From Methanothrix sp. (GTDB lineage: Archaea; Halobacteriota; Methanosarcinia; Methanotrichales; Methanotrichaceae): a DNA stretch of 64,000 nucleotides. A model generated the notes under the pieces. It ran no database searches and was not told the origin of the DNA. It saw only the letters and a program-made list of their open reading frames with translations. Of this stretch, positions 11,763-51,848 are shown in pieces (positions within the stretch are counted from its first letter, which is position 1; every line of letters starts with the position of its first letter). Location: contig OY821645.1 in assembly GCA_963682135.1 (NCBI GenBank), positions 768,001 through 832,000 on the forward strand, in the 5' to 3' direction. The position numbers were made by a program, and so were the translations under genes.

Positions 11763-14606
11763 TCACCCCCAAAACCTCTTCGTCCTGGCATACTCCCTCT
11801 CCGCCTTCAGAATATCCCGGTAGAACTCCAGTTCATCACTCTGCATCTTTCCCACAACCCGGGCAGCCGTATCCGGGCCCAGCCCCCGGCTCGCCAAAGC
11901 GATGGCAGCGGTCTTGCCGTAGCTCAGGACCAGGTTGGCATTGCGAAAGACCCGCTTCGTCCTGCGTTTGTCCTCGGCGGTCTTCTTCTTCTCCGGCTTT
12001 TTGACGATCTTGATCTCCTCTTCCTCCCAGGGCTTGAGGGCTGCTACCATGCGGGAACCGCATAAAGGACATTCCGGCTGCTCTGGCACTCGCTCCACCT
12101 GACGCATGCTCTTCCATTTCTTGCAATTCACGCAGAACAACAAGACCCGGTCGTTCATGATGCGGTTTTTGAGCAGATCAATGACCGCAGCATCCGCGTG
12201 CTCGGGTGATGTGACATCCCGACCCCCGCCCCTCCCTGAGGTTCCAATGGGGCTTGGCGAGCTGGCGATAATCTCAATTGAGCCGTCCTGAATTCTCTGC
12301 AGCACCCACTTGGCTCGCTCTATGTCCAGCCGGTCATGATAGATCTCCCGCAGCGCCTCCCGGTACATGGGCGTGCCCTCGAAGACGGCCAGAAGCTTGG
12401 CCATGCTCACCCTCTGATAGTCCACATCCCGAGAGAATGCCCCAAATTTGCGGGCTACGTGCACCATCTTCCAGCGCAAAAGGGTAGTATTCTTGAGAGT
12501 CATCTCCAGGATGGGCTCCACGTAAGTCGGATCCAGCTCCATGAGCAGCTTCTTGATCTCCTCGGCCAGCAGGACGCGAGGCAGTGTCAGCTCAATTCGG
12601 TAAGGATCTATTTGCAGGGCCACATTGCTGCCGAATCGGGCAGAAAGGATAGCAGTGATGATCCGACCCAATGTGTCATTGGTCTTATGGCCGAAACAGG
12701 CATTGATGATGGCGCCCTCTCCCCCGCTCTCCACCACAATATGAGATTCATCAGGAACGGGCAGGCGTTTCTCCATCTGCTTTTGGATGAGATCGACAAG
12801 CTCTGCTGCCGCAACATCCTCCAGCGGGTACTTTCTCTGCAGCATGGCCACGGCCCGATCGCTGGCGCTGCCGGCTGAAGCTTCATCTGCGCTTCCTTCG
12901 TTTCCTTCGCCTCCTGCGCGCTCCAGGATCTGCAAGATCTCCCGCCGCATGCTGCCCACCTCCTGGGCAATAGCAAAGGGAACGGGAATCTCTTCCCCCG
13001 TCCAGCTGGGAATCTCTCCGCTCCTGTGAATGGGCACCACCTTGATCTCATTGTCTGCAATCTCAGTGATCTCCCAGATCTCCCCCTTGGTGACGAATGT
13101 GGCTCCCGGCTGGGCGAAGCTGATGACAAATGCCTCGTCCAGAGTTCCAACGGAGCGGCGGCCTACTATGTCATAGACGTTGTACCTCTTCTCATCCGGG
13201 ATCATGGAGAGGTTCTCGATGTAGTACTCGCGTGCCTTGCGAGTCCTCTGCAAAATATCGCCATCCGGCCATGCCAGGCGATGCTCCACCATCTGAGTGA
13301 TGACGCCGTCCATCTCTTCCTTGCCTAGATCTCGAAAAGGATAGGCTCTGGTGACGATTCGGTGCACCGTTTCCCTATCGATGTCACCAAAATCCATCTC
13401 CAGTCCTACAATCTGATTGGCCAGGACATCTGTGGGCTTCTCGTGAATCAAGATGGCTTCCAGCTCGCCGGCTGCCGCTCCGCGGGCAATGGCACAACCC
13501 TCGGCCACGTCATCGGCACTGGTAGCAATGATGGTCCCGGAAGAGACGAGACCAATCTTGTGTCCGGAACGTCCAACGCGCTGCAGAAGGCGAGCAACGG
13601 CGCGCGGAGAGCTGTACTGAATAACGTGGTCCACGTCTCCGATATCAATTCCCAGTTCCATGGAGGAGGTGCAGATCAGGCCGCGCAAATCGCCTGCCTT
13701 GAATGCCTCCTCTGCTTCTACTCGCGTTTCAACGGAGAGACTGCCGTGGTGCACACCAACAGGCTCGCCAAGCTGGCGAAAACGCGAGCCCAGTACCTCC
13801 GCCGCCTGCCGGGTATTCACAAAAATCAGGCACTTTTTATTGTGCACCGTCTCCCGGATGAAGCGAATCTGCGCAGCCAGACGGGGATCGCACTCCAGGG
13901 TGCTTGCCATGGCATAGTCCCCTCTGCTGGGAGAAGGGCTGACCACGCGAAAGTCGCTGGCCCTCTCCACATCTGTCTGGATGATTTTGCAGCTTCTATT
14001 CGTTCCCACGAGCAGACTGGCCACGACCTGCGGCGAGCCAACCGTAGCAGAAAGCCCAATTCTTTGAAAGTCGCCGGCAAGCTGCGCCAGCCTCTCCAGG
14101 AGCACGGCCAGCTGCGAGCCGCGTTTGGTGGAGGCCATCTCATGAACCTCGTCTACCACCACGGTCCTGACAGTGGAGAGATTCTTGCGCAGGAGTTTTC
14201 CCGTCAGCATTATCTGCAAAGTCTCCGGGGTTGTGATCAAGAGATCCGGCGGCTTTAGGGCCTGTTTTCTCCGATCCGCCTGACTGGTGTCGCCGTGCCG
14301 AACAGCAACGCTGATGTGCAGCTTCTCCCCCCATTCTAAAAATCGGCGCAGCATGTCCCGATTGAGGGCACGAAGTGGCGTGATGTAGACCGCCTTTGTG
14401 CCCTTGATCTCGCTAGAGAGGATCTGATGAAAGATGGGCAGGCTTGCGGCCTCGGTCTTCCCTGTGCCTGTGGGCGCAATGAGCAGCACATTTTCGTTGG
14501 AGAGGATAGCAGGAATAGCCTCTTCTTGCGGCTTTGTCGGCTCGAAAATCCGATCTTCCTCTAGCTTTGCTCTGATCTGGTCATCAAGCAGGAGGAAAGC
14601 GTTCAC
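11763..14606 (-). CDS. lhr: Lhr-like ATP-dependent DEAD/DEAH helicase
   Basis: APTGTGKT, TPLRALNRD, DEVHE, GLSATVG, HHGSLS, SMELGIDIG, QRVGRSGH; C-terminal Zn ribbon. Confidence 0.93.
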   Translation of the reverse strand: MNAFLLLDDQIRAKLEEDRIFEPTKPQEEAIPAILSNENVLLIAPTGTGKTEAASLPIFHQILSSEIKGTKAVYITPLRALNRDMLRRFLEWGEKLHISVAVRHGDTSQADRRKQALKPPDLLITTPETLQIMLTGKLLRKNLSTVRTVVVDEVHEMASTKRGSQLAVLLERLAQLAGDFQRIGLSATVGSPQVVASLLVGTNRSCKIIQTDVERASDFRVVSPSPSRGDYAMASTLECDPRLAAQIRFIRETVHNKKCLIFVNTRQAAEVLGSRFRQLGEPVGVHHGSLSVETRVEAEEAFKAGDLRGLICTSSMELGIDIGDVDHVIQYSSPRAVARLLQRVGRSGHKIGLVSSGTIIATSADDVAEGCAIARGAAAGELEAILIHEKPTDVLANQIVGLEMDFGDIDRETVHRIVTRAYPFRDLGKEEMDGVITQMVEHRLAWPDGDILQRTRKAREYYIENLSMIPDEKRYNVYDIVGRRSVGTLDEAFVISFAQPGATFVTKGEIWEITEIADNEIKVVPIHRSGEIPSWTGEEIPVPFAIAQEVGSMRREILQILERAGGEGNEGSADEASAGSASDRAVAMLQRKYPLEDVAAAELVDLIQKQMEKRLPVPDESHIVVESGGEGAIINACFGHKTNDTLGRIITAILSARFGSNVALQIDPYRIELTLPRVLLAEEIKKLLMELDPTYVEPILEMTLKNTTLLRWKMVHVARKFGAFSRDVDYQRVSMAKLLAVFEGTPMYREALREIYHDRLDIERAKWVLQRIQDGSIEIIASSPSPIGTSGRGGGRDVTSPEHADAAVIDLLKNRIMNDRVLLFCVNCKKWKSMRQVERVPEQPECPLCGSRMVAALKPWEEEEIKIVKKPEKKKTAEDKRRTKRVFRNANLVLSYGKTAAIALASRGLGPDTAARVVGKMQSDELEFYRDILKAEREYARTKRFWG

Positions 14607-25453: not shown

Positions 25454-26276
25454 AAAGTATCGTCATCCAATCCTCTTCTACGGATTGTCCACAGCAATTC
25501 CGTGGGCGTTTTGGTTCGCGGCTGCGTACTTGAGCCACATCACACCCATGAACCAGTTTTTGGCGACAGCGGTAGGCGTTCTGGGCGTTGTTGGGCTGTT
25601 TGGTCCTACTTTGATAGCATTCTGGATGATCTGGCCGGACGCTGACTTAAGGGACGATCTCAAGAGACGGTTGATCGGTCTCAAAGGCGTCAGGCCGATC
25701 TATCTCTTTCTTACCTGTTTCCTCATGCTTGCCAGCATTCTTATGGCACAAGGGATTTCCTTATTGTTCGGGTACAGCGCGGATCAGTTCAGTCTTTCGG
25801 GCATGTCGTCGTTCTCTGCCGGAATCTTCCCAGGGTGGTTCCTGCTCTTTCTCGCACCCCTGGTAGAAGAATTGGCGTGGCACTCCTATGGCACCGACTG
25901 TCTGCGACAACGGATGAACCTGCTCAAGGCTTCCCTGCTGTTCGGTGTGTTCTGGGCTCTTTGGCATCTGCCGCTATCCTTCATCAAGGATTACTACCAC
26001 AGCAACGTGGCTGAGATAGGGCTGCTGTACAGCCTCAATTTCGCGTTCAGCCTTATTCCCTATGTAATTCTTATGAACTGGCTGTACTACAAGACGCATC
26101 GCAGCATACTTGTTGCTATTGTCTTTCACATCACAGCAGGGTACTTCAATGAAGCATTCGCCACGCATCCGGATAGTAAGGTGATCCAGACCGGACTCTT
26201 GCTGCTGCTGGCGATCGTGGTGATCATCAAAGAAAAGGACTTATTCTTGCAGCGAGACTACCGGGAGGAGAAATAG
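25431..26276 (+). CDS. CPBP/Abi (CAAX protease-like) intramembrane metalloprotease
   Basis: EELAW..Y, FWALWHLPL, AIVFH..AGYFNE. Confidence 0.9.
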   Translation: MNMIMTIEKYRHPILFYGLSTAIPWAFWFAAAYLSHITPMNQFLATAVGVLGVVGLFGPTLIAFWMIWPDADLRDDLKRRLIGLKGVRPIYLFLTCFLMLASILMAQGISLLFGYSADQFSLSGMSSFSAGIFPGWFLLFLAPLVEELAWHSYGTDCLRQRMNLLKASLLFGVFWALWHLPLSFIKDYYHSNVAEIGLLYSLNFAFSLIPYVILMNWLYYKTHRSILVAIVFHITAGYFNEAFATHPDSKVIQTGLLLLLAIVVIIKEKDLFLQRDYREEK

Positions 26277-26291
26277 AATCTGCGCAATTTG

Positions 26292-26483
26292 CCTAAACCC
26301 ATACCCCACACCATTCTCTGTCGGCCTTCCCCTGTCCGTCTCTCTCCGGCGGAGGAAAGCATGCCACGAAATGTTCCGCCCGTCCAAGCTCGTGCCGGCT
26401 ACAGTCTCCACCTTCACCGGCCTGGGAAAGCCCGCTTGCTCCAAAAGCCGCAGGAGGTCGTGCTCAAGGCACCCGATCTGCAG
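26292..26483 (-). pseudogene. csb2: Remnant of type I-G (I-U) CRISPR protein Csb2, C-terminal region
   Basis: LQIGCLEHDLLRLLEQAGFPRPVKVE...ISWHAFLRRR...GVGYGFR resembles the Csb2 C-terminus as I recall it; lacks the N-terminus and the terminal Gly-rich loop. Confidence 0.6.
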
Positions 26484-28462: not shown

Positions 28463-28729
28463 TCAAACACTTGCTTGGCAAGCCGGAGCATTCAGATCAA
28501 CCTCTCCGGCAGCGAGCGGCTTGGCCAGAAGTGTTCCTGCATGCAACGCCTTGCGAACCTCGTCGATCTTCCTAGCGGTCTCTAACGAATAGTAGGCTTC
28601 GTCACAATTCTCGCAAACGAAAGCCGGAATGTTTTTGATTACTACTACCATATTATTTATCTTGGCTGTGATCTCCGTTGTACCTTCGTGAAGCTTGCCG
28701 CTGCAATACTGACATTCATCTGGAATCAT
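28463..28729 (-). CDS. YgiT-type zinc finger (MqsA-like) antitoxin
   Basis: CQYC.G....G..........VVIKNIPAFVCENCDEAYY. Confidence 0.9.
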   Translation of the reverse strand: MIPDECQYCSGKLHEGTTEITAKINNMVVVIKNIPAFVCENCDEAYYSLETARKIDEVRKALHAGTLLAKPLAAGEVDLNAPACQASV

Positions 28730-29058
28730 TTTCGTATCCTCACTCTCCCTTCAATCCATTTGTCCTCTGCTGGCCTGTAGACTGTCACAATCTTTATGTG
28801 GTCTCTGCATACGGCAACGGCCACATGGCAAAGTTGCTCACTCATGTCATGTCCAAGCATCAGGGCTTCAGGGCATGGTTTTCGTTCTGGATGTCCTTCT
28901 ATTACGTCTCCATTCATTAATAATTTTATCACATCATCGGGTGATATATCCCTCTCGAACATCCTCTCGCCTGCATGGTTAGAAAATACAATCTTGCCGG
29001 TAGCTGCAAAAAGCCTTATCCTTGCGCACAGATTTAATGACTCCCCGTCTCCACTCAT
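28726..29058 (-). CDS. DUF4258 (RelE-like) putative toxin
   Basis: FSNHAGERMFERDIS...GDVIE.HP...P..L.LG......HV........IVTVYRP...W. Confidence 0.88.
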   Translation of the reverse strand: MSGDGESLNLCARIRLFAATGKIVFSNHAGERMFERDISPDDVIKLLMNGDVIEGHPERKPCPEALMLGHDMSEQLCHVAVAVCRDHIKIVTVYRPAEDKWIEGRVRIRK

Positions 29059-29324: not shown

Positions 29325-29606
29325 CTACTTCTCTGCAGGCAGCGTCACATCCACAATCTGGCCCACCTGCCACTCCTGGCTGTGGGTTGCGACAACCACA
29401 GCTCCGAGGCGCGGATCATAGAAGGCGATGGCGGCAGCAGGCGAGGCGTGCAGGCGGTGCAGGGCCATGCCGTAGCGCCAGATGGGAGCCCGTCCCTCCA
29501 CGATGACGAGCGAGCCGCGGGGGATCTCGGGGAGAGAGGGCAGGGGCTCGGAGGGGGTGATGGGTGAGGGGACGGCGATGGAATAGAGGACGGGGGCGGC
29601 GATCAT
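29325..29606 (-). CDS. csx3: CRISPR ring nuclease Csx3 (Crn3), intact
   Basis: IVEGRAPIWRYGMALHRLH...AFYDPRLGAVVVATHS...GQIVDV matches the Csx3 signature (GRxPIW, H, YDPRLGAVVV.SH); overlaps the CARF-nuclease stop codon. Confidence 0.9.
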   Translation of the reverse strand: MIAAPVLYSIAVPSPITPSEPLPSLPEIPRGSLVIVEGRAPIWRYGMALHRLHASPAAAIAFYDPRLGAVVVATHSQEWQVGQIVDVTLPAEK

Positions 29607-30856
29607 CTTGACACCCTCCCACCCAACATGAATATTTCTGATAATTTCTTCACGATCTTTTGGTCGTTATTCAATTTCATCTCTGCGAGTTCCTTAATAT
29701 GCATGCTTGGGATTATAGTGCAATTGTAGAGTTCCGCCCTATCTGAAATAGAATCTTTAATATCATTGCCTTTGAGTACGTTTGGAGAGGTTGTTGCAAG
29801 ATAGGATTTTATGTTGAGTGCACCTAATTGTCTTTTTACAGCTTCCACCTTATAGAGTGTTTCATTGCCTGAAGGATCATGTTTTTGGTCACCGGTCTTG
29901 CATTCAATAAAGCGCAGTGATTGGTTATGCATAAATGCAATGTCCCAGTCGTTCTTCACCTCTTTTTTTGACGCCTTAAAATCCAATTTTTTTCTTGGAT
30001 GAATGCCCAATCGAACGTCAGTAATTCCCAAATCAGGTGAATAATCTGTAAGAATTCCCCAGATAAATTCTTCCAACCAGCCTCCGGTTAAGAATTGCAC
30101 AGCATGACGCTTTAGAAGTCCATTAAGGAGTCCCTCATTATCATTAAGGCTAAATAAACTTGAAATCAGATCTCTAATAATTTCATCTTTTATTTCTAGG
30201 TTGACTAAAGTAATGCCCTTTTCTCTTGCCTTGGATCTGGCTTTCTCTAAGTTATCTCCATAGACCTCATTGAACCTATTATCCAAATCTTTCATTATCT
30301 TATGAGCAATATTAATATTTGCAGAGAGATGGACTGATAAATCAAGCAATTTTCTAGCACGCTCTTCACCTTCCTGGATAACATCCTCTTTCTTGAGATA
30401 GTCAAAGCCGTATCCTGCAAGGAATTCTTTAACTTTCAATTCATATTTCAACTCCATAAGTGAGCCGTCAGAGAAGTCAATAGCCTTTTTTTGAGCAATA
30501 ATCGGAACATAGAGTATTTTTGCATTTCTTCCTTTGAAGAATTCATATGCTGCTATAGACATTGGTTTGGTGCCGCCTGTAATATTAATAGTCCATTCTG
30601 CATCTGGATGTTTTGAAAGAAGCGTCCCAAGCAATTTCTTTGTAGCTTCGATGGAATTCTCTTCTTTAAGCGATTTAATTCTGCAAATCGGCTTCTTTGA
30701 ATGTCCCATTCTCAATGCCCTTATTAAGTTCGAAGCCCCTCTCTTGACTTTCATTCCTGGTGTTTCAAGCAAAATAAGAAGGTCAGGCTCAATTGTATGA
30801 ACCGTTAATAGGTTTGGAACATGCTGATCGCTTATTAGGCACACCATGACCTTCAT
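29603..30856 (-). CDS. CARF + PD-(D/E)xK nuclease effector (Card1/Can2, DUF1887 type)
   Basis: LISDQHVPNLL and NITGGTKPMS (CARF); FLTGGWLEE and NDWDIAF...FIECKTG (nuclease). Confidence 0.85.
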   Translation of the reverse strand: MKVMVCLISDQHVPNLLTVHTIEPDLLILLETPGMKVKRGASNLIRALRMGHSKKPICRIKSLKEENSIEATKKLLGTLLSKHPDAEWTINITGGTKPMSIAAYEFFKGRNAKILYVPIIAQKKAIDFSDGSLMELKYELKVKEFLAGYGFDYLKKEDVIQEGEERARKLLDLSVHLSANINIAHKIMKDLDNRFNEVYGDNLEKARSKAREKGITLVNLEIKDEIIRDLISSLFSLNDNEGLLNGLLKRHAVQFLTGGWLEEFIWGILTDYSPDLGITDVRLGIHPRKKLDFKASKKEVKNDWDIAFMHNQSLRFIECKTGDQKHDPSGNETLYKVEAVKRQLGALNIKSYLATTSPNVLKGNDIKDSISDRAELYNCTIIPSMHIKELAEMKLNNDQKIVKKLSEIFMLGGRVSR

Positions 30857-32007
30857 CTTCTTCCTCTCCCGTCTCTTGGCTTGTGGCTAGTCTCTTTCTT
30901 TGCGCCAATGGCAGCAAAATTATATATGCCCTCCTTTTCCATGACTCCGTTTATCTCCAGCTTTGTCTTTTGGTTGATTTCAACAGATGGCGGTGTTCCG
31001 AGCACTACAAGACCACCAAATCCATCATCTGCCATGAAATAGGATGCATTTCTCTTCTCTTTCGGATCGGGAACTTTTGTGACTTCTATGGTATCGCCTT
31101 TCTTATGCCTCATCATTCGGATTGGCTGTGGCCGGTTCTGTGGATGTGGCTTATCCATGATTGAAGACTCAGCAGCCGAATCCTTGGCCTCTATTGACCT
31201 TCTGCCCGTTTGATCAGAACCTACAGGAATTAACCGTCCATAGCCTGCGTTTGTCTTGCCACCAATGCCCCATTCCTGTAGCGCATCAGAGAGCAGCTCG
31301 AAGACCTTCGTAGCCCAATCATCGCCAATTGGCCCTGAAACGTCGCAAGATACTGCAACCTGGAAGGTTCCCACGATTGATAGAAAAGTTACTGGATTTG
31401 GATCATCAAAGTCCGTCGGCGCAATATTGCCCGTCTCATCAGAGTAGTAATCGCCATGATGCGGTGTCATCACATCAAGCTGAAGCGATCCTTCAAGGCT
31501 ATCGGGAGTGATCCAGGCATCATGGAAGATGATATGCCCTGAGTCCTCGGTCGTTCCGAAGATGGCCTTATGGTATTCACCGCTCAGCTTGAATTTCTCA
31601 TCAGCCGCCCCCCATGCCTGATCACAATAGTGAGCTGCAAGGCCCTTCAGAGCTGAGCCTGGAATCAATGGGGTTCCATAGGTATGGTTCAGGGTAAGCC
31701 CGGTTTCAAGGACATTTTCTCCGCCAAGGCCGATGATCATTCGACCATCTGTGCGATAGAATCCTTTGGACTTCAAATTCCTGAGCGCGTACTCTTGCCT
31801 TTGATAAGCCGCTTCGTAGGTCTCTCTGGACTGAACAAGCGATTGGCGCATCGCCTCAAACAGCTCTCTGCGGGATTGAGGATGGTTTTTCTTGTCTTTT
31901 ACAGCTACGCGGAGAAACCTGTCTCTCAAAAGTCCCGCATTATCGCCATTTTTGTCGAAATCCCACCATGCTGAAATAGCTGATCTGCAAGCTTCGGCCA
32001 TTTTCAT
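30853..32007 (-). CDS. cmr6: Type III-B CRISPR RAMP Cmr6
   Basis: GLGGENVLETGLTL..TYGTPLIPGSALKG, DVMTPHH..YY, PTDFDDPNPV.FL, GIGGKTNAGYG. Confidence 0.95.
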   Translation of the reverse strand: MKMAEACRSAISAWWDFDKNGDNAGLLRDRFLRVAVKDKKNHPQSRRELFEAMRQSLVQSRETYEAAYQRQEYALRNLKSKGFYRTDGRMIIGLGGENVLETGLTLNHTYGTPLIPGSALKGLAAHYCDQAWGAADEKFKLSGEYHKAIFGTTEDSGHIIFHDAWITPDSLEGSLQLDVMTPHHGDYYSDETGNIAPTDFDDPNPVTFLSIVGTFQVAVSCDVSGPIGDDWATKVFELLSDALQEWGIGGKTNAGYGRLIPVGSDQTGRRSIEAKDSAAESSIMDKPHPQNRPQPIRMMRHKKGDTIEVTKVPDPKEKRNASYFMADDGFGGLVVLGTPPSVEINQKTKLEINGVMEKEGIYNFAAIGAKKETSHKPRDGRGRR

Positions 32008-32358: not shown

Positions 32359-33303
32359 TCAGCCTCTCGTGAACTGGCATCTAACTCTGCCCTTGCCCAC
32401 TGTCGCCTTTCCTCCGATCTGCAGCTCCAGCGCTGAGCCGCTACAAAATACATCGAGCAACTTCTCAACCAGTTTTTTCTGATCACCGCCATTGCAGCCA
32501 TATACTCTATCGCACCAGACTATTCCAGCCAAGATGGTCTCGACTGGCAGAGCCTCCTCATACCACAGTGCGCCTTGGGTGACAATCTTCTTTTCGTCCT
32601 CGATCCTGATATGGGCTGAAACCTCAGTTCCAGTCTCCGAGAGGAAATTGAAGCTATTATCTGAAACGATAGCAAAACGCTCCTGGAAGATGCTCTGCCA
32701 TCTGGTATCACCGGAAAAGATTTCTTTCGCAAGCAGCTCAGCCCATTTCTGAGTTAAAGAATTATCCGCTCTGGCCGTAAAGTCAAGATCTTCAAAGAAT
32801 ACCTTGCCATCTGCAGCCAATTTGGTATCTTTCATGTGAAGAGCCTCAGTATCGCTAGCAACAGGAGCTTCGGGTACGTCATTGTATCCAGAATCAACGA
32901 GATCTCTCCTTAGCCTCTCTAGAACCAGGCGACTTGTAACATAAGCAAATGTGCCGTAGAGACTGCGAATGGGAAGGCAGACTATTCTTGCATCGGTAAA
33001 TACAAGGCTGCCTGAGTTCGCGCTGCCATTATCATCGTCGGGCTTGCCAAAGGCGGCATTGATGAGCTTATCAAAAGCTTTTTTCTCTTCTTCTGGTTTT
33101 TCATTCTTCTTTTGATCGAAATAGTCCCTTATCACGCCCTTAGTTGCAGATCCTGGAACCAGAGGCCATCCTGTTACCTTTTCCCTGATAATAGGAAGAT
33201 CTATAAATCCCACACCTCGACCCATGCCAACATGCAGAGGCGTTATTGCCTCTAGCCAGAAAATTTTAGTTGTCAAATATAGCAACTCCTTTCTTCTCTC
33301 CAT
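32359..33303 (-). CDS. cmr4: Type III-B RAMP Cmr4 (target RNA nuclease)
   Basis: TPLHVG.G.....IDLPI.RE (catalytic Asp intact), PGS..KG, GALWYEEALP.ET, QIGGKATVGKG. Confidence 0.95.
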   Translation of the reverse strand: MERRKELLYLTTKIFWLEAITPLHVGMGRGVGFIDLPIIREKVTGWPLVPGSATKGVIRDYFDQKKNEKPEEEKKAFDKLINAAFGKPDDDNGSANSGSLVFTDARIVCLPIRSLYGTFAYVTSRLVLERLRRDLVDSGYNDVPEAPVASDTEALHMKDTKLAADGKVFFEDLDFTARADNSLTQKWAELLAKEIFSGDTRWQSIFQERFAIVSDNSFNFLSETGTEVSAHIRIEDEKKIVTQGALWYEEALPVETILAGIVWCDRVYGCNGGDQKKLVEKLLDVFCSGSALELQIGGKATVGKGRVRCQFTRG

Positions 33304-33309
33304 TTTTGT

Positions 33310-34500
33310 TCAAACATTATGATAATCCCACAATCCCCAAACGGCAAGTCCGAAGCCATCTCGCCGGTCTTGATTATCGTCACAAACTGATCTCAGCCAG
33401 AGGCTTTTAACCAGCTCTTCTGCATCTCCTGACAAGACCTCAAAGAAATAAACTGAGCCTGCAGGAACAAGCCTTCTAATTGCCTTCGGTCCGCGGCTGC
33501 CTTTCTCGAGGCTCCAGCCAGAGATCGGCTTCCAGCGATCGGTGCAGGCGGAGACAAGCTTTAGCTTCAAATCCTTAGGCCAAAAATCAGGCAATTTCCC
33601 TTCCTGCCAACCATCCAGCCATCCTGGCCTCCAGTCACCGGAGAAGATCGCAGGAGTTGCCAATATCATGCGAACTTTTTTCTTACCGGACAGTGCTTTT
33701 GCCACTTCATCAGGGCAGCTCCAGCCTCTATGAGAATTATCCAATTTCCACTGAGCTAATCGGCGTTCGCCGCCTATAGTATGAAATGTTTCGACCATCC
33801 TTTTTGGATATCCAACATCTTTTTCAAATTCTGCTCGTGCAGCCAGTTGAATACCATCTTTTTGATTTTTTATTGATAGATCGAGCCCTATCGTCTCGAA
33901 GAGCATTCTTTCTTTGGACGCACCTCGACTGGGATCTATCCAGATGTGGGTCCGTTGGTCTTTCTGTGGCAAGCTGCAAAAACCATCTCCGTCTTTGACA
34001 TTATCCGGCTCTGGTGGGGCATTAAAAGACTCACCTTTGGAATTTATGAGCCATCTAGTTATCATTTCCATAGACCAAAAGCCTGGGATTCTTGCAGGTT
34101 TGAAGTCCTTTTGCATGCTATCAGGAAGCATTGCAGGAAGAAGGCCTTCAGGCAAATCACATCCTTCTCCATCCTTCAGGTTTGCCGGACGAATTGCATA
34201 GGCTTGACGCTTGCATTTTTCATCCTTTACTAAGATATCCTTTGGTGACGGAATAAAAATCTGCCCTTTTATTAATGGCAGAGGCCCTGAGACCTGAATA
34301 GTCTTTAGCTCTTTAACCCTATTCTCATCGAATGCACCACCATTGATCTTTCCTAGCATTGTTCGAATAGATCCGGAGAGGACTGAGGGATATGGCCAGT
34401 CAAGGGATCTCATCCGAATTCCCTGCCCGACCCCGAATGGTCGCCCATCTCTGGCAATGACAGGATCATGAGGAGTTATGGATAAAAAAACAACATTCAT
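33310..34500 (-). CDS. cmr3: Type III-B Cmr3
   Basis: DPVIARDGRPF, PYPSVLSG, GGERR, LATPAIF..GW.P, VPAGSVYF, GFGL. Confidence 0.94.
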   Translation of the reverse strand: MNVVFLSITPHDPVIARDGRPFGVGQGIRMRSLDWPYPSVLSGSIRTMLGKINGGAFDENRVKELKTIQVSGPLPLIKGQIFIPSPKDILVKDEKCKRQAYAIRPANLKDGEGCDLPEGLLPAMLPDSMQKDFKPARIPGFWSMEMITRWLINSKGESFNAPPEPDNVKDGDGFCSLPQKDQRTHIWIDPSRGASKERMLFETIGLDLSIKNQKDGIQLAARAEFEKDVGYPKRMVETFHTIGGERRLAQWKLDNSHRGWSCPDEVAKALSGKKKVRMILATPAIFSGDWRPGWLDGWQEGKLPDFWPKDLKLKLVSACTDRWKPISGWSLEKGSRGPKAIRRLVPAGSVYFFEVLSGDAEELVKSLWLRSVCDDNQDRRDGFGLAVWGLWDYHNV

Positions 34501-36338
34501 GCAGATTCCTCCTTCTTGATTTGATCACTGATCTGTCTTTTTACCTCTGCTATGCTTCTTGCGAGAACCAGTTCCTCTGCTCGGCGAACAAGATCGTCAT
34601 GGGATGTTACGTCTTTCATTAATTTGTCGATATCTTCTTTGTCGATCTCATTCGCTCCATGGCCTGATCTTTTTTGCCTAAGCAGTCGTTCTACATCTTT
34701 TGGGATCAGGTTCTGGGATACCAAAGCCCAATCTCTGTAATCATCTGCAAGAAGACGCAAGTCGTAAGCTGCTTTATCAGGGAACTTGTCCAACTGATAC
34801 ATCTCGACCCATTCTCCCATCCTTTCGTCCAGCCCGTTCTGGCCTGTTGGTCTCCATCGTTCTCTGATCTTAATCGGATCCCCGCCGCTTCTTGTGTGAA
34901 GATTTACAGATAGGCCATTTCTGTCGGGATATTTGGCTGATTTCTCGGCAGCCCTTCCATATTCAAGAAGATCCTCCAGAGGTTCCATCGAATGACCAAT
35001 GGCGACTCCAACTGACAAAGTTGGTATTTCGCCTCCTAAATCCTTACTAGAATCCTTAAGCAGGTTCTCAAAAGCATCGTGGAGATCTCTTGCAGCTCCA
35101 AGACAATGGTCCACAGGAATAAAAGCTAATACATCATCGCCGCCAGAGTATACCATGCAACCCCGATGGTCATCCTCAACAATCCACCGAGCTTTGATGG
35201 CAAATTTTGCCAGTTGGCCCGAGAACTCTTTGTGCTTCTCTTTTGATTTTATATTGGAAAGGGCCTTTCCCATTTGATCCCCATCGGCGACTAGCATTGC
35301 AAGATATGGACCAGGCTCGCCTAATCTCTTCCAAAGCTCGATCGTCTTCTTTTGAATCAGATCGAGCGTCTTTAAATCGCCTTTGAAAAGACTATCCTCA
35401 TCCGAATCAATTAGAGCATTTTTTAAGACCTCCTTTACTCTGGAAAGACGTGATGGATAGAATATTTGTCCATCGAATGGAAAGTCCTGGTATACCCTTT
35501 TTCCAGTGCCGCTAGAGAAGCTATTAGTTCCTTCGCACAGTATTTTTATTTCGTTAATGATTCGATTGGCGTCCTCATTTTGATCTCCAGCTATCCCTCT
35601 AAGCCATGGATCAAGAGCTACGCGGATTACTGAAGGAAATGCTATTCTTTGGCCACCGAGCCTCTTAGTCAATCCAACAGCACAGAGCTGCTCCCCATCA
35701 TTCAAACGCATCTGGAGAGAGAGTTCTTTTGGAATCGAACGATCTTTTTTGAGAATGCTCTCCCTTGCACCATCAAGCGATGATTTTGGAATGCCCGCCA
35801 GACCTTTTGCGGGTCTGAAATCACGAATGGACTTCCTGCCTGCCAAAAGGCGCATGACTCTTGATCGAGTATCTTGATAGTCATCAGTTAAAGGAGTCCA
35901 GGCAGCATAGAATTCTATGACGTCATCAATCTGATTATCCCAGATCTCTGGATGGATTGCCGCCCCTGCTTTATCCCTTGCCTCTTCGGCATAATGCATC
36001 CATTCCTCTTGAGCAGCAGTCTTTGCCTTTAAATTGAGTTCAGAAGGTTTTAGTTTCATGCCATCAGGCAGCTCTGCCAGAACTACGTTAGCTACATTAA
36101 AGGCATAAATCCTTTTATCAAGTGGCAATTTATAGGAGGATTCAAGGTCAGGATCTCCGCATACCAGCGCAGGAAATATTAGATTTCCTCCAGCTTCAGC
36201 CACCGTTCTGGCAGCTGCTTTGCTTATTTCTGAAAGAAGATGCGATCCGAACCAAAGATCCCTTGTCCTTCTTGCTGCCGAAATGAAGTCCTGAACAGGT
36301 CCGATTGATAGAACGTAAAGATACGAAGTCAAGATCAC
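34497..36338 (-). CDS. cas10: Type III-B Cas10/Cmr2 (no HD domain, intact cyclase palm)
   Basis: IGPVQDFISAARRTRDLWFGS at the N-terminus; ADGDQMG; VYSGGDDVLA. Confidence 0.95.
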   Translation of the reverse strand: MILTSYLYVLSIGPVQDFISAARRTRDLWFGSHLLSEISKAAARTVAEAGGNLIFPALVCGDPDLESSYKLPLDKRIYAFNVANVVLAELPDGMKLKPSELNLKAKTAAQEEWMHYAEEARDKAGAAIHPEIWDNQIDDVIEFYAAWTPLTDDYQDTRSRVMRLLAGRKSIRDFRPAKGLAGIPKSSLDGARESILKKDRSIPKELSLQMRLNDGEQLCAVGLTKRLGGQRIAFPSVIRVALDPWLRGIAGDQNEDANRIINEIKILCEGTNSFSSGTGKRVYQDFPFDGQIFYPSRLSRVKEVLKNALIDSDEDSLFKGDLKTLDLIQKKTIELWKRLGEPGPYLAMLVADGDQMGKALSNIKSKEKHKEFSGQLAKFAIKARWIVEDDHRGCMVYSGGDDVLAFIPVDHCLGAARDLHDAFENLLKDSSKDLGGEIPTLSVGVAIGHSMEPLEDLLEYGRAAEKSAKYPDRNGLSVNLHTRSGGDPIKIRERWRPTGQNGLDERMGEWVEMYQLDKFPDKAAYDLRLLADDYRDWALVSQNLIPKDVERLLRQKRSGHGANEIDKEDIDKLMKDVTSHDDLVRRAEELVLARSIAEVKRQISDQIKKEESA

Positions 36339-37651
36339 ACCTCCCGGAATTTATTCTCTTTAGCAAAGGCGAGGAATCCTTCAATTGCTGAGCCCGATGG
36401 AGAACGTGCGGGCTGACCGGGCCTTGGGCTTCCCAGAGGCGATTGCGGGTAAGCGCTAAGCATCGGATCTCGTATTTTCTTGGACCTGGGGCTTCCAGAT
36501 GCCTTTTTCAGGACGACTTCATCCGGAGAATGCGCCCTTAAGCAGAGAATCATCTGCTGCACCTCTCCGTTTTGACAGACAATAGGCCTTAAAATAATGG
36601 GGCTTGCCATTCTCGTCATCTCCTGGCCATTTACTATCGGATAGAGTTCGGTATCTTTAGGATCATTATGGTCCTTGAAATGGAAGACTATGGGCAGACC
36701 AAGCTCAGCTCTGGGAAATGCATCGTTTGGAATTCCCGGCATTCTGGAATGCTTCGGTTCCCGTTGAGATGTCTCTTTCCTTATCGTTTCTGGCTCGGGC
36801 CATCTTGACCGCCCAGGACGGTTAGGAGCCGTTCCGGGATTTCTGCCAGTATTCTGACCCTGCCTGAATGTCTGCATAAGGCTCACTACGTCATTCCACG
36901 CTTGCATTGCGCTGTTGCTGCTCTTGACAAGCAATGCATCGGGAAGTATTGGCCATTGCCTTGTCTGAGGCAGAACGACGCCGAAGTTTTGAAGACAATC
37001 TTTATACCAGGAGCCGATGCGTGATGCATCTGGAGGAGAAAGTTCATGGCAATAAAGTGCCCCGCAGCCTCTTCTAGCGCGAGCGCCTGCTCCTCCAAAG
37101 TTGGTCCAGGCCCAGACGGCTGCATCCACATCTGCGGAGAGGTTTGCAGGATAAATTAATTTCAACTCAAAGGAGACCTTTGAGGTGCATTCTGCAATGG
37201 CAGTGCCTTCTTTTTTATTTCCCTGGAAAGGAAAGAGCGCGTATCCTGGATGGTTTTCCTTGAATTTGGCGAAATTCTTTCCTTCAGGGATGTGCGCACA
37301 TGGATAGGTTATCCCTTGCGATTTTATTGTGACCTCAACGATCACCTGGCTGGGGTTATCGGTTTTGCCCCAGATTTCACCTTCAGACTGGCGAAGCTCG
37401 GCGACAGAAATGCATTTTGCAGCGCCCCGTGTCATTCTCCAAAAAGACCGTAGGTTTCCTCTGATGCTTGATGGGCGAATGAGTGTCACAAGATCGTTTT
37501 CGCTTGATTCGACACCTCCTCCAAAAATTGGTGTTATCACATCGATGCTATAAACCCTTCGAATCTTGTTCGGCTGGGAATCTATATTTAAAGGTTTTCC
37601 AAAGCATTTTGGAATGCTACGATTCATAGTCACACTCCCTTCAATTTGCAT
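36335..37651 (-). CDS. cmr1: Type III-B RAMP Cmr1
   Basis: ITPIFGGG, IRPSSIRG.LR.FWR, FGGAGARARRGCG, PRAELGLPI.F, RMASP.ILRP. Confidence 0.94.
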   Translation of the reverse strand: MQIEGSVTMNRSIPKCFGKPLNIDSQPNKIRRVYSIDVITPIFGGGVESSENDLVTLIRPSSIRGNLRSFWRMTRGAAKCISVAELRQSEGEIWGKTDNPSQVIVEVTIKSQGITYPCAHIPEGKNFAKFKENHPGYALFPFQGNKKEGTAIAECTSKVSFELKLIYPANLSADVDAAVWAWTNFGGAGARARRGCGALYCHELSPPDASRIGSWYKDCLQNFGVVLPQTRQWPILPDALLVKSSNSAMQAWNDVVSLMQTFRQGQNTGRNPGTAPNRPGRSRWPEPETIRKETSQREPKHSRMPGIPNDAFPRAELGLPIVFHFKDHNDPKDTELYPIVNGQEMTRMASPIILRPIVCQNGEVQQMILCLRAHSPDEVVLKKASGSPRSKKIRDPMLSAYPQSPLGSPRPGQPARSPSGSAIEGFLAFAKENKFREV

Positions 37652-37791
37652 GATTCAAGGCTACTCCACCAACGATCCCATTGCAGCATTAAATTATTCT
37701 CACTCCTCTTTAAGGATCAGATAATTTAGCTTAATATTAGGTGATCCGCAATGTCGTATGCAATTGAAAAAATGGTGCATTTTTTCTCATT

Positions 37792-37959
37792 CTAATGCAC
37801 CACTATGGAAACATGTACGGATATATCAATAGGCTTTGCAAGATTGGCCAAAAAAATAACGTTAAGCATAAACGCTAAAAACCCATTCAAGTATTTAGCG
37901 ATGGCCGATCGAGTCTCAAATTCGTTATGTATTCTATTGTTTTGTTTTTTCCTTTTCAT
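37792..37959 (-). CDS. Unannotated 55-aa basic/hydrophobic peptide (candidate toxin or leader ORF)
   Basis: SD-like AAGGTGA 4 nt before ATG; MKRKKQNNRIHNEFETRSAIAKYLNGFLAFMLNVIFLANLAKPIDISVHVSIVVH*; upstream TTATATA box at 38021-38027 (-). Confidence 0.6.
   Translation of the reverse strand: MKRKKQNNRIHNEFETRSAIAKYLNGFLAFMLNVIFLANLAKPIDISVHVSIVVH
37900..37925. promoter_or_regulatory. Target site of the adjacent crRNA-like spacer
   Basis: gatggccgatcgagtctcaaattcgt (+) matches the - strand of 38093-38118 at 24/26 nt. Confidence 0.8.
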
Positions 37960-38081
37960 GCTATCACCTTTAGGGCAGCTTTTAATTAGGCCCTATAATT
38001 GATTATTATCGAGTTCCTAGTATATAACAATTTTGCATAACTGTAGTGATCAAGCCAAATTAATATATGCATGCCTTTAAG

Positions 38082-38162
38082 AAAAAAATTGGACGAATTT
38101 TAGACTCGATCGCCCATCATAACGGTTTCAATGGGGCCGCGAATCTATTTTATCGCGGAATG
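38082..38162 (-). CRISPR. Single CRISPR-like repeat + ~36-nt spacer + T-tract (mini-array / crRNA-like RNA)
   Basis: Repeat CATTCCGCGATAAAATAGATTCGCGGCCCCATTGAAAC (38162-38125) with a CCGCGA/TCGCGG stem and ATTGAAAC end; spacer CGTTATGATGGGCGATCGAGTCTAAAATTCGTCCAA, then TTTTTTT; no second repeat. Confidence 0.75.
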
Positions 38163-38688
38163 AGTTTGTATTATTTTCAATCCTATATCAGTCTTTCGTC
38201 CACGACTTGACTATGCCCTCATAAGTCTTAAATTGGGCTTTCGGCTATCTCGCCGCCCGCTCACGCCCCCGCCTGCCCGTGCCCGCCCGCGTGCGCTTGC
38301 GCGTAGCCGGGAAGGGCGCGCGTGTGGCCCAGGGCGCGTGGAGCGTGCTCTTGCCGCCAATTCCCGCCCAATATCACTCTCTTCGCACCTCACGAATAGT
38401 AGTATAGATTAGATCCAAATACCGCTACTGTCCTGCGCCGTCAATCCCGCCCCTCCGGCCCGCCTGCGCCTGAGACGCGAGGCCCCTGGACAGCAAAGGC
38501 CTTGCAGGATACCCGGCTCTGGAGGTGGCCTGGCAAAGATCGATGTGCCCGCATCCCTGCAGCGACATCAGACTGACCGCGGCATGACTGGCAATCGTGG
38601 GCCATAGCCGCTTCCAAAGATAACTCAGGCGTTTCTCTACCACAACAAGCCATATATTTGCCAATAGATAAGACTTTTTATTGATATT

Positions 38689-49744: not shown

Positions 49745-51848
49745 AAGAGCGTACGCCATTGAAAAGACTATAAATGCGTACAGCATGGCTCTCCAAAATG
49801 AGCAAGACCTAATAGAAAAAGCCCGTATCCAGGAAAAAATCGCAGACAATTATTATGAGCTTTCCCTTGTCAAGATTGAAGATCGAAGATCCTGTCTACT
49901 AGAATCCATAGAGGCCTATCAGGAGGCTCTCGAGATCAGAACCCCGGATAGTTTCCCGAGAGATTATGCCAGAATACAAAACAATTTTGGGGCTATATAT
50001 CATACTCTGGCCCAGGTCGAGGACAAGGCCAAGAATTGCCATGAGGCTATCAAGGCCTACCAGGAGGCCCTAAAGATCCGCACTCTAGATGATTTCCCAT
50101 TGGATTATGCCAGGACGCAAAACAATCTCGGTAATGCATACGGCACTCTGGCCCAGGTCGAGGACAAGGCCAAGAATTGCAATGAGGCTATCAAGGCCTG
50201 CCAAGAGGCTCTAAAGATCCGCACTCTCGATGATTTCCCATTGGATTATGCCAGGACGCAAAGCAATCTCGGTAATGCATACGGCACTCTGGCCCAGGTC
50301 GAGGACAAGGCCAAAAACTGCCAAAAGGCTATCAAGGCCTACCAGGAGGCTCTAAAGATCCGCACTCTCGATGATTTCCCATTGGATTATGCCAGGACGC
50401 AAAGCAATCTCGGTAATGCATATCATACTCTGGCCCAGGTCGAGGACAAAGCCAAAAACTGCCAAAAGGCTATAGAGGCCTACCAGGAGGCTCTAAAGAT
50501 TCGCACTCTCGACGATTTCCCATTGGATTATGCCAGGACGCAAGACAATCTCGGTAATGCATACGGCACTCTGGCCCAGGTCGAGGACAAAGCCAAGAAT
50601 TGCCAAGAGGCTATCAAGGCCTGCCAGGAGGCTCTAAAGATCCGCATTCTCGATGATTTCCCATTGGATTATGCCAGGACGCAAAGCAATCTCGGTAATG
50701 CATACGGCACTCTGGCCCAGGTCGAGGACAAAGCCAAGAATTGCCAAGAGGCTATCAAGGCCTGCCAGGAGGCTCTAAAGATCCGCACTCTCGATGATTT
50801 CCCATTGGATTATGCCAGGACGCAAAGCAATCTCGGTAATGCATATCATACTCTGGCCCAGGTCGAGGACAAAGCTAAAAACTGCCAAAAGGCGATAGAG
50901 GCCTACCAGAAGGCTCTAAAGATTCGCACTCTCGACGATTTCCCATTGGATTATGCCAGGACGCAAGACAATCTCGGTAATGCATACGGCACTCTGGCCC
51001 AGGTCGAGGACAAAGCCAAAAACTCCCAAAAGGCTATCAAGGCCTGCCAGGAGGCTCTAAAGATCCGCACTCTCGACGATTTCCCATTGGATTATGCCAG
51101 GACGCAAAGCAATCTCGGCAATGTATACGTCACTCTGGCCCAGGTCGAGGACAAAGCCAAAAACTCCCAAAAGGCTATCAAGGCCTACCAGGAGGCTCTA
51201 AAGATCCGCACTCTCGATGATTTCCCATTGGATTATGCCAGGACGCAAAGCAATCTCGGTAATGCATACGTCACTCTGGCCCAGATCGAGGACAAAGCCA
51301 AAAACTGCCAAAAGGCTATCAAGGCCTACCAGGAGGCTCTAAAGATCCGCACTCTCGATGATTTCCCATTGGATTATGCCAGGACGCAAAGCAATCTCGG
51401 CAACGCATATCATACTCTGGCCCAGGTCGAGGACAAAGCCAAAAACTGCCAAAAGGCTATCAAGGCCTACCAGGAGGCTCTAAAGATCCGCACTCTTGAC
51501 GATTTCCCATTGGATTATGCCAGGACGCAAGACCATCTCGGTAATGCATACGGAACACTAGCCGAGGTCGAGGACAAGGCCAAGAATTGTCAAGAAGCTA
51601 TCAAGGCCTATCAGGAAGCACTCAAGATTCGCACTCTCGACGATTTCCCCATAGATTATGCAGAGACACAGACCATTCTTGGATCTGTGTACAAAACTCT
51701 GGCTGAAGCTGAAAACAAGATGGATAATTTCAGGAGAGCCAAGCAGGCATATGTGCAAGCGATTGAGACCTTGACTAAGCTGGAATTGCCAGAGATTAAA
51801 AAGTCGGTTGAAGATAAGCTATCCGAATTGGATTTTATCTGCCGCTAG
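49734..51848 (+). CDS. TPR-like protein with 12 near-identical 47-aa repeats
   Basis: Unit YARTQ[S/N/D]NLGNAY[G/H/V]TLAQVEDKAKNCQ[K/E]AIKA[Y/C]QEALKIRTLDDFPLD; 77-aa N-cap and 63-aa C-cap. Confidence 0.92.
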   Translation: MTIKRAYAIEKTINAYSMALQNEQDLIEKARIQEKIADNYYELSLVKIEDRRSCLLESIEAYQEALEIRTPDSFPRDYARIQNNFGAIYHTLAQVEDKAKNCHEAIKAYQEALKIRTLDDFPLDYARTQNNLGNAYGTLAQVEDKAKNCNEAIKACQEALKIRTLDDFPLDYARTQSNLGNAYGTLAQVEDKAKNCQKAIKAYQEALKIRTLDDFPLDYARTQSNLGNAYHTLAQVEDKAKNCQKAIEAYQEALKIRTLDDFPLDYARTQDNLGNAYGTLAQVEDKAKNCQEAIKACQEALKIRILDDFPLDYARTQSNLGNAYGTLAQVEDKAKNCQEAIKACQEALKIRTLDDFPLDYARTQSNLGNAYHTLAQVEDKAKNCQKAIEAYQKALKIRTLDDFPLDYARTQDNLGNAYGTLAQVEDKAKNSQKAIKACQEALKIRTLDDFPLDYARTQSNLGNVYVTLAQVEDKAKNSQKAIKAYQEALKIRTLDDFPLDYARTQSNLGNAYVTLAQIEDKAKNCQKAIKAYQEALKIRTLDDFPLDYARTQSNLGNAYHTLAQVEDKAKNCQKAIKAYQEALKIRTLDDFPLDYARTQDHLGNAYGTLAEVEDKAKNCQEAIKAYQEALKIRTLDDFPIDYAETQTILGSVYKTLAEAENKMDNFRRAKQAYVQAIETLTKLELPEIKKSVEDKLSELDFICR
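49965..51656 (+). repeat. Coding tandem repeat, 12 x 141 bp
   Basis: Near-identical DNA units (e.g. ggattatgccaggacgcaa recurring every 141 bp). Confidence 0.95.

Follow-up and report, generated by a model that had tools for sequence, protein, structure and literature searches.

A candidate Cmr-guided, RNA-level counterpart of CreTA toxin-antitoxin modules upstream of cmr1 in Methanothrix

Introduction

Control of host genes by guides that resemble CRISPR RNAs (crRNAs) has so far been shown for DNA-binding effectors, in CreTA, CreR and related systems. Here we describe a locus in Methanothrix sp. (Methanotrichaceae) at which the neighbouring effector is the type III-B complex Cmr. The DNA analysed, called the window throughout, is the whole stretch of 64,000 nt between positions 768,001 and 832,000 of contig OY821645.1 (GenBank assembly GCA_963682135.1; C1:768001-832000). 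On its reverse strand, upstream of cmr1, a short gene with one CRISPR repeat and a 36-nt guide is followed by a small hydrophobic open reading frame (ORF), and the guide is complementary to the ORF's sense transcript. We refer to the guide gene and the small ORF together as the module. Published systems are described here and below as they appear in the accessible parts of the sources cited.

The closest described systems are the CreTA modules of type I-B in Haloarcula and of type I-F in Acinetobacter and Pseudomonas, in which an ectopic, degenerate repeat gives rise to a crRNA-like RNA that is partly complementary to a neighbouring toxin gene within the cas locus (PMC9458426, PMC8501985, PMC10097628). 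The partial match is tuned for repression without a destructive immune output, and addiction of the host to the effector is expected. The Methanothrix module has this general design, although it departs from CreTA in several ways. CreTA directs Cascade to promoter DNA next to a protospacer adjacent motif (PAM), with a seed at guide positions 1-5 and 7-11 (PMC8501985), whereas the module would pair at positions 8-32 on an mRNA, which is the mirror image of that arrangement. The effector encoded beside the module is Cmr, in 15/15 loci, and not a DNA-binding one as in CreTA; the known CreT toxins are small RNAs that sequester tRNA, whereas the target here is an ORF for a hydrophobic peptide; and the module has one repeat only.

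CreR and other regulatory mini-arrays are also alike, in that a degenerate mini-CRISPR stands beside cas genes and has a partial match nearby (10.1101/2023.03.10.532045, PMC10120712). These belong to types I-B, I-E, I-F, V-A and II and act as repressors at DNA promoters, whereas the guide described here matches a separately terminated small-ORF transcript and not a cas promoter. A further parallel is offered by CRISPR-repressed protein toxins, which are silenced by a Cas effector with a cr-like guide and set free once that effector is inhibited, conferring immunity against anti-CRISPRs at the level of the population (10.1101/2024.01.05.574328); there the repression is transcriptional and is exerted by a DNA-binding effector, whereas slicing of an mRNA by a type III complex is what we would expect of the module.

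Two better known systems share parts of the design. As in the canonical type III-B complexes TtCmr and PfCmr, the locus has cmr1-6, here with Card1 and Csx3, an 8-nt tag, a 6-nt periodicity of pairing and a seed located towards the 3' end of the guide. It differs from them in that the guide is a single-repeat gene with its own promoter and terminator and not part of an array, that it targets a host gene beside the operon, and that complementarity in the Cas10-activating region is not retained across the 12 guide-target pairs compared below. In type I toxin-antitoxin systems such as hok/sok, the mRNA of a small hydrophobic peptide is under post-transcriptional control of an adjacent complementary small RNA; the RNA of the module differs in having a CRISPR repeat and tag and the pairing geometry of a Cas7 backbone.

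Type III mini-arrays have been considered before. Shmakov et al. described them in a preprint as having no conserved positions, enriched Cas10 clades or targets, and as probably degraded (PMC10120712). Reviews of December 2025 and February 2026, in their accessible parts, present CreTA as Cascade-mediated transcriptional repression only. We found no report of toxin control by a type III crRNA-like RNA in the searchable literature, a scope that leaves out most subscription journals and supplements, and the accessible parts of PMC12737573, PMC10120712, PMC9458426, PMC8501985, PMC12948488, 10.1101/2023.03.10.532045, 10.1101/2024.12.27.630466 and 10.1101/2024.10.29.618823 contain no type III CreTA-like system.

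Results

A single-repeat guide gene and its target upstream of cmr1

The module is made up of two short putative transcription units on the reverse strand, each with its own TATA-like box and its own terminator. Their features, in the direction of transcription, are as follows.

38180-38197, - strand: putative promoter motif of the guide gene, resembling a B recognition element (BRE) and TATA box, GAAAGACTGATATAGGAT; a conserved motif
38125-38162, - strand: single ectopic CRISPR repeat of 38 nt, identified by sequence, with a 6-bp hairpin CCGCGA/TCGCGG
38125-38132, - strand: 8-nt 5' tag ATTGAAAC, the terminal part of the repeat
38089-38124, - strand: spacer-like guide of 36 nt, positions 8-32 of which are 38093-38117
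38082-38088, - strand: T7 run, a likely archaeal terminator of the guide transcript
38021-38036, - strand: putative BRE/TATA-like promoter of the small ORF, GCAAAATTGTTATATA; similar boxes stand upstream of the ORF in related loci
37964-37970, - strand: Shine-Dalgarno-like AAGGTGA; GGTGAT or GGTGGT at the same place in the relatives G009 and G104
37792-37959, - strand: small ORF P0001 of 55 aa, candidate toxin, with a basic N-terminus and hydrophobic residues 27-41
37901-37925, - strand: target site in the mRNA, codons 12-20, opposite guide positions 32 down to 8
37767-37802, - strand: hairpin and T6 terminator after the small ORF

A first-pass annotation of this DNA, made by a model from the sequence alone, had described the promoter motif, repeat, guide and T7 run of the guide gene and the 55-aa ORF with its AAGGTGA, and all of these are present where they had been placed. 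From the spacing usual for archaeal TATA boxes, transcription of the guide gene is expected to start near the 5' end of the repeat. The repeat is an orphan: the whole 3,043,341-bp genome, which is a single contig, holds no second copy at up to 6 mismatches, and there is no CRISPR array in the 64-kb window. A search against Rfam gave two sub-threshold matches only, one being a weak resemblance of the repeat to CRISPR-DR16 at 38125-38163 (18.4 bits, below the gathering score of 35) and the other a meaningless miRNA match spanning the inverted repeat formed by guide and target. The minimum free energy fold of the guide transcript is not distinctive (z = -1.2).

A repeat search of the window found the inverted pair 37900-37925 and 38093-38118 to be identical at 24/26 positions. 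With both arms read on the same strand, the guide RNA and the sense transcript of the small ORF are complementary to each other. The match had been noticed in the first-pass annotation, with mismatches at guide positions 12 and 24, and it is borne out in both respects. Positions 1-5 had been called mostly mismatched, as indeed they are, with only one of them paired; position 6 had been called unpaired and is in fact a G.U wobble. We scanned both strands of the genome with 22 core positions of the guide (8-32 without 12, 18 and 24). The guide's own template strand aside, there is only one 22/22 site, which is the target in the small ORF, and the runner-up among ∼6.1 million registers matches at 17/22. 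This genome-wide scan rules out a chance match.

The module recurs with covarying guides and targets

Cmr1 is present in 20/392 genomes of the class, and the 20 Cmr1-bearing loci were examined (relatives are cited below by genome, G, or locus, L). An orphan repeat lies upstream of cmr1 in six of them (the window, G009, G104, G087, G041 and G085), two of which, G009 and G104, were also recovered as carriers of the module in a DNA search of relatives. In all six, the stretch of the same strand that best complements the guide is found 158-238 nt downstream of it. A motif of the GAAAGACTGATATAGGAT type, with no more than 3-4 mismatches, stands before the repeat in several metagenome loci and in five of the six loci, namely the window, G009, G104, G087 and G085; the sole motif match in G041 is elsewhere and is not a guide promoter. 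After the guide, the related loci have a T-run, or a hairpin followed by a T-run.

We also scanned 79 genome-contig loci and 80 metagenome loci for the pairing pattern with no repeat required. Tag-preceded pairs were found in 5/79 of the former, with the same guides as the five relatives and presumably from the same five records, and the module was found in 9/80 of the latter (L130, L131, L133, L134, L136, L139, L141, L180 and L153). The module is therefore counted at 15 loci, namely the window, five Methanotrichaceae genomes and nine metagenome contigs. All are upstream of cmr1, and the order is guide gene, small hydrophobic ORF, cmr1. Among the bacterial Cmr1 relatives in the 79 and 80 scanned loci the other matches were ordinary inverted repeats or CRISPR arrays lacking a tag in register.

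Twelve guide-target pairs were compared. L130 and L131 (copies of the G009 type) and L134 (a copy of L133), as judged from the scan output, were dropped, and the genome-contig rows were not added beside their counterparts in the set. The guides fall into four families that have only 1-9/22 core bases in common between them. Even so, each guide pairs with its own target at 19-22/22 core positions, whereas pairing across families reaches 1-10/22. The inverted match is conserved in related loci, with covariation and with cognate pairing only.

One of these loci is L153:537-780, whose Cmr1 is 47% identical to that of the window. Its repeat is unrelated but also ends in ATTGAAAA, and its guide pairs at 7-11, 13-16, 19, 21-23 and 25-32, with mismatches at 12, 18 and 24; positions 2-4 pair too. 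The target spans the start codon of an ORF of 315 aa for which Pfam, PHROG and PADLOC give no family, and a second, slightly shifted copy of the target is found ∼45 nt upstream. L153 may be a distant analogue, which suggests that the design exists outside the Methanotrichaceae. At L006:1490-1650 (G105), a different RAMP (repeat-associated mysterious protein) gene has upstream of it the promoter motif of the module and a repeat belonging to the module's repeat family (tag ATTGAAAT); no convincing target was found within that locus, the best register matching at 22/40.

Pairing resembles the geometry of a type III-B complex

The number of Watson-Crick pairs at each guide position (n = 12) is given here in order of position.

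Positions 1-5: 2, 2, 3, 3, 1
Position 6: 7
Position 7: 3
Positions 8-11: 12, 11, 11, 9
Position 12: 2
Positions 13-17: 12, 12, 12, 11, 9
Position 18: 3
Positions 19-23: 11, 10, 11, 12, 12
Position 24: 0
Positions 25-32: 9, 12, 11, 12, 12, 12, 12, 12
Positions 33-36: 3, 2, 3, 3

Within positions 8-32, 31/48 of the cells that are not Watson-Crick fall at 12, 18 or 24 (binomial 1.5e-17 against an expectation of 3/25, uncorrected for kinship). The mismatch pattern at 12, 18 and 24 is present in each of the four guide families, and the bases at these positions vary between families yet stay unpaired, as freely drifting sites should. In the window, positions 12, 18 and 24 stand opposite the first bases of codons 19, 17 and 15, and in the second family (B) the target spans the start codon; the 6-nt period is for these reasons not a codon effect, and an origin in codon wobble was ruled out. 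Four of the 17 non-Watson-Crick cells in the core are G.U, a number that is uninformative on whether RNA or DNA is targeted.

This pattern can be set beside the biochemistry of TtCmr (Steens et al. 2021, PMC8376896). In that complex each sixth guide nucleotide is excluded from pairing, binding of the target begins in the 3' segments at nucleotides 19-29, and the Cas10-activating region comprises nucleotides 1-7 minus 6. Mismatches at nucleotides 1-5 abolish synthesis of cyclic oligoadenylate (cOA) while degradation of the target persists, and complexes with crRNAs of 40 nt and 46 nt exist (PMC8376896). In the natural pairs, pairing ends at position 32, which together with the 8-nt tag makes 40 nt, the same as the 40-nt crRNA species of TtCmr. 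By analogy with TtCmr, the natural pattern predicts slicing of the target without cOA. A pairing geometry that would fit such an outcome is conserved across all 12 pairs taken together, with positions 1-5 and 7 largely open, 8-32 paired and 12, 18 and 24 open.

It had also been suggested that the sequence flanking the target resembles the repeat end at a 1-nt offset, as an anti-tag would. The resemblance is there in the window, at 5/8 tag positions in the +1 register, and again in G104 (6/8) and partly in G009, but it is not conserved in the other families, and we therefore rejected anti-tag complementarity as a conserved safety device. As a separate observation, the 3' flank of the target at 37882-37893 resembles an inverted copy of the repeat end (38128-38136), shifted by one base, and likewise in G104. 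This suggests that the target arose by inverted duplication of a repeat-spacer unit within what is now coding sequence (residues YLNG).

The small ORF and its transcript

The 55-aa peptide has a Kyte-Doolittle score of 2.17 over residues 27-41, a hydrophobic segment as long as a helix, and a net charge of +5 in its first 12 residues. Despite 27-34% non-synonymous divergence, relatives retain the ORF's length (five versions have 55 aa), Shine-Dalgarno sequence and hydrophobic core. A profile search for the 55-aa type finds it in 4/105 genomes of the family, in one copy each and always within the module.

Three types of peptide were found, all hydrophobic and paired with different guides. The first, of 55-58 aa, carries the target at codons 12-20 (the window, G009, G104, G085 and L133); in the second, of 29-38 aa, the target covers both ribosome-binding site and start codon (G087, L136 and G041); and the third is of 83-112 aa (L139, L141 and L180).

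The terminator hairpin and T-run are kept in the aligned relatives, and the loci of the first guide family (A) all have a hairpin plus T6-T7. The two arms are still complementary in G009, G104 and L133, though the bases flanking the TGCAT/ATGCA core differ; in G085 the 5' arm is divergent. A hairpin and T-run are also seen at L139:2330-2370 and L141:540-575, inside a predicted ORF of 99-112 aa and before its stop codon, so that either the real protein is shorter or the message has no stop.

The cmr operon and the CRISPR equipment of the host

Downstream of the module on the same strand lies a complete set of cmr genes, followed by two genes of cOA signalling. NCBIfam matches to Cmr1-6 are all above cut-off.

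36335-37651, - strand: cmr1 (TIGR01894); alignment with relatives indicates that the true start is probably the ATG at 37627
34497-36338, - strand: cas10/cmr2, 613 aa, GGDD at residues 399-402; NCBIfam match, and the only Cas10 palm2 match in the genome
33310-34500, - strand: cmr3 (TIGR01888)
32359-33303, - strand: cmr4, slicer subunit (TIGR02580); the only Cmr4 match in the genome
32004-32501, - strand: cmr5 (TIGR01881)
30853-32007, - strand: cmr6 (TIGR01898)
29603-30856, - strand: card1, cOA-activated effector with CARF domain and endonuclease (PF23400, PF09002)
29325-29606, - strand: csx3, ring-nuclease family (PF09620)

Asp35 of Cmr4, in the motif IDLPI, aligns with the same motif in solved Cmr4 chains (3x1l_C), and we take this aspartate to be the slicer residue. 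With the GGDD motif of Cas10, Card1 and Csx3 all present, the locus appears able to signal, and a fully matching self-target would therefore be dangerous. A Pfam and NCBIfam scan gave no match to an HD domain in Cas10, so that DNA damage at a self-target is not expected. In G087, cmr1 had looked like a pseudogene, but the TGA taken for a stop codon precedes the GTG start.

Five arrays, with repeats of three types, are present in the genome: type A at ∼69.8 kb and 75.3 kb, type B at ∼2,285.6 kb and 2,287.9 kb, and type C at ∼2,949.6 kb. The type B arrays adjoin a Cas3 gene that scores above its family cut-off (2,290,055-2,291,173), and their repeat, read on the other strand, also ends in ATTGAAAC. 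When ten orphan repeats are aligned with those of arrays A and C, a common 7-bp hairpin is evident, followed by ∼12 nt ending in ATTGAAA(C/T/A), and three of the seven hairpin pairs show compensatory changes among the orphan, array A and array C repeats. Because the hairpin and tag are common to arrays A and C, the orphan repeat is a diverged member of the host's own repeat family.

A Cas6-like enzyme in trans had been called for as well, and two full-length genes like the C-terminal part of Csb2, candidates for the processing enzyme, were located beside these two array types, at 76,813-77,595 just after array A and at 2,947,910-2,948,677 just before array C. In relatives, the gene upstream of the module or of cmr1 matches the Cas6-like C-terminal half of Csb2 (TIGR02165, 69-73 bits, cut-off 45). 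All that the window has at this position is a remnant:

38244-38347, - strand: G+C-rich remnant of a Cas6-like gene (blastn 74.5% identity over 110 nt within the Cas6-like ORF of L077; also a match to L136)

An 82-aa Cas6-like fragment, again like the Csb2 C-terminus, is found downstream of the cmr locus at 26268-26483 (-), with an E-value of 2.5e-15 to a protein of L130.

The module is a discrete and patchily distributed insert

In relatives that do not have the module (L051, L054, L056, L060, L075, L084 and L123), the Cas6-like gene ends ∼50-80 nt before cmr1, and since the two genes abut in this way the module can be recognised as a discrete insert of ∼0.6 kb. Its distribution was followed on a Cmr1 tree of 36 rows, made up of the window and 35/159 collection loci, chosen as the archaeal and closest ones among those with at least ∼700 nt of sequence upstream. 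On this tree the module, present in 12 rows, requires at least eight changes, six of which are forced by well-supported branches, and its presence is not more clustered than in 37-41/500 shuffles. The same guide family accompanies Cmr1 proteins that are 46% identical (the window and G085), and different guide families accompany nearly identical Cmr1 proteins (L077 and L180). Such patchiness fits a mobile, selfish addiction element.

In some relatives (L077:1238-2078, L130:334-786 and L062:1190-2323), small additional genes are found next to the Cas6-like gene and the module or between the two. Judged by eye from motifs, two of them, in L077 and L130, read as HEPN/DUF86-like with nucleotidyltransferase-like neighbours, and one ORF of L062 as RelE/ParE-like.

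Other features of the window

Two genes directly downstream of csx3, at 28463-29058 (-), resemble a small toxin-antitoxin pair that closes the cmr locus: one encodes a DUF4258 protein of 110 aa, and the other, which it overlaps by 4 nt, is an 88-aa ORF that belongs to no family. At 50004-51661 a 141-nt unit is repeated in tandem 11.8 times at 92% identity, presumably as a coding repeat. A 949-aa open frame at 13566-14489 (-) scores 61 bits for the cas3 core helicase family, below the cut-off of 102.

Discussion

The pathway we propose begins with transcription of the short gene made up of promoter, one repeat, 36-nt guide and T-run. A Cas6-like enzyme encoded elsewhere in the genome would cut the repeat to leave the 8-nt tag AUUGAAAC, and the resulting RNA of ∼40 nt would be loaded into the Cmr complex encoded just downstream. 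Positions 8-32 of the guide would then pair with the mRNA of the neighbouring small hydrophobic ORF, made as a separate transcript, and Cmr4 would slice that mRNA so that the peptide is not made. With the Cas10-activating positions 1-5 and 7 unpaired, Cas10 would make no cOA and Card1 would stay silent. If Cmr or the guide were lost, or if a viral inhibitor blocked Cmr, the mRNA would survive and the peptide, presumably acting at the membrane, would harm the cell. The outcome would be a cmr locus that is addictive, or an infection that is aborted.

In short, the module would be a type III-B, RNA-level counterpart of CreTA, a reading to which we give a probability of roughly 55%. Its steps from transcription, processing and Cmr loading to slicing, absence of cOA and toxicity are drawn from sequence comparison and from the biochemistry of bacterial Cmr, and they start from an anatomy, a conservation and covariation, a pairing pattern, a unique target, and catalytic motifs and partners that are plain in the loci themselves. 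We are evenly divided on the fuller claim, that this would be the first natural RNA-level CRISPR-regulated toxin-antitoxin system to work through a type III effector, with a dedicated single-repeat guide, slicing of a membrane toxin's mRNA uncoupled from cOA and Card1 because evolution holds positions 1-5 and 7 open, and a module that hops among cmr operons and punishes loss or viral inhibition of Cmr, whether as an addiction device or as abortive infection directed at anti-CRISPRs. The first-pass annotation had proposed a Cmr-guided system of either toxin-antitoxin or autoregulatory character, which the covariation, the host-related repeat and the conserved pairing geometry support; on sequence grounds we favour the toxin-antitoxin role, because the ORF is separately terminated, its hydrophobic coding is kept in three forms, and it is strictly linked to the guide.

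Several points weigh against this reading. That the small peptides are toxins is an inference from their size, hydrophobicity and strong promoter and from the fact that they never occur without a guide. They match no family in Pfam, NCBIfam, PHROGs or PADLOC; the 55-aa type has seven members among 5.8 billion proteins, and the two named clusters are called 'hypothetical protein'. The ratio of non-synonymous to synonymous changes per site (pN/pS) in the small ORF is 0.21-0.74 overall and 0.55-0.74 against G009 and G104, which indicates weak to moderate purifying selection only. The 12 pairs are kin, about four families being independent, so that the counts suggest more independent events than there are. 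At position 30 a Watson-Crick pair is kept in 12/12, with covariation (38095 and 37923 in the window), contrary to a strict every-sixth rule; the kinks seem to stop at 24, which is compatible with a short complex. Position 6 is paired in 7/12 though its neighbours are unpaired, and the Cas10-activating region is not wholly open, L153 pairing at 2-4 and 7 and G104 at 2-3. The rules that connect pairing with cOA come from one bacterial complex, TtCmr, and the archaeal complex may differ. Finally, the Cas6-like gene adjacent to the module in the window is degraded, and processing must for that reason occur in trans.

The alternative that survives best is a CreR-like autoregulator acting at the RNA level, which we consider possible but improbable. 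The ORF transcript would read through into cmr1-6 and Cmr with the guide would cut this leader, limiting its own synthesis, the peptide being a by-product or leader peptide. Autoregulation of the CreR type is established for types I-B, I-E and V-A (10.1101/2023.03.10.532045), and the position of the module immediately upstream of cmr1 in every locus is what it would call for. Where the module is absent, cmr1 follows the Cas6-like gene and is probably co-transcribed with it, so that an inserted module must supply or pass on transcription, and the stretch from the ORF terminator to cmr1 showed no cmr1 promoter that is clearly conserved. Read-through is nevertheless opposed by the hairpin and T6-T7 terminator that follows the ORF in all A-family loci, with arms that remain complementary in 3/4 relatives despite base differences. 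A mere leader, moreover, would need neither the kept ORF length, Shine-Dalgarno sequence and hydrophobic core nor three types of hydrophobic peptide with different guides.

A guide that acts independently of Cas proteins, as the antisense RNA of an ordinary type I toxin-antitoxin system, is unlikely. The repeat would then be a vestige or a stabilising hairpin, and a plain duplex, for which ∼25 nt of pairing would be enough, would block or destabilise the mRNA. To the extent that it combines a small hydrophobic peptide with a complementary small RNA close by, the module conforms to the classic type I layout. With a free duplex, however, there would be no cause for mismatches to recur at 12, 18 and 24 in four guide families that are unrelated, or for pairing to start in a fixed register to the 8-nt tag and stop at 32. 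Both the hairpin of the repeat and its tag, ATTGAAA(C/T/A), are conserved and agree with those of the host arrays, and the module is found next to cmr1 only. Judged on the aligned pairs, this geometry argues for a protein effector, which would be Cmr, and against a free duplex with a host RNase.

Classical CreTA, in which the guide would enter a type I Cascade and repress transcription of the ORF by binding DNA, we regard as very unlikely. The genome does have a Cas3 gene next to array B, the repeat of which ends in ATTGAAAC on its other strand, and flipping of every sixth base is common to Cascade (PMC8501985). Yet type I CreA works by seed pairing at 1-5 and 7-11 beside a promoter PAM (PMC8501985), and here 1-5 and 7 are unpaired; the target sits within the coding region, 35-60 nt in, or covers the start codon, and is not in the promoter; in its hairpin the orphan repeat goes with arrays A and C, and it differs from the array B repeat; and the module is tied to cmr1 in all loci. 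A functionless relic, formed from a degraded array end and a chance inverted duplication, is scarcely credible, for although a 2023 survey judged type III mini-arrays probably degraded and non-functional (PMC10120712) and the target flank is like an inverted copy of the repeat end, suggesting an origin by duplication, the four guide families pair with their cognates only, the pairing boundaries, promoters, terminators and location are conserved, and neutral decay would erase a 25-nt match and not maintain it by compensatory change.

If the module is indeed a type III-B counterpart of CreTA, several consequences would follow. It would provide a natural case in which RNA slicing and Cas10 signalling are separated by the pattern of guide pairing, a separation known so far from mismatch scans of TtCmr in vitro. 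The 12 natural pairs would amount to an evolutionary mismatch scan of an archaeal Cmr, with 8-11, 13-17, 19-23 and 25-32 as positions that must pair, 12, 18 and 24 as free positions, and 1-5 and 7 as positions that must not pair. The design suggests guides for type III knock-down without collateral responses, and a kill-switch logic for Methanothrix, a key methanogen of digesters and wetlands. The view that type III mini-arrays are non-functional would be overturned for at least one archaeal family, in which type III complexes would serve host gene control as well.

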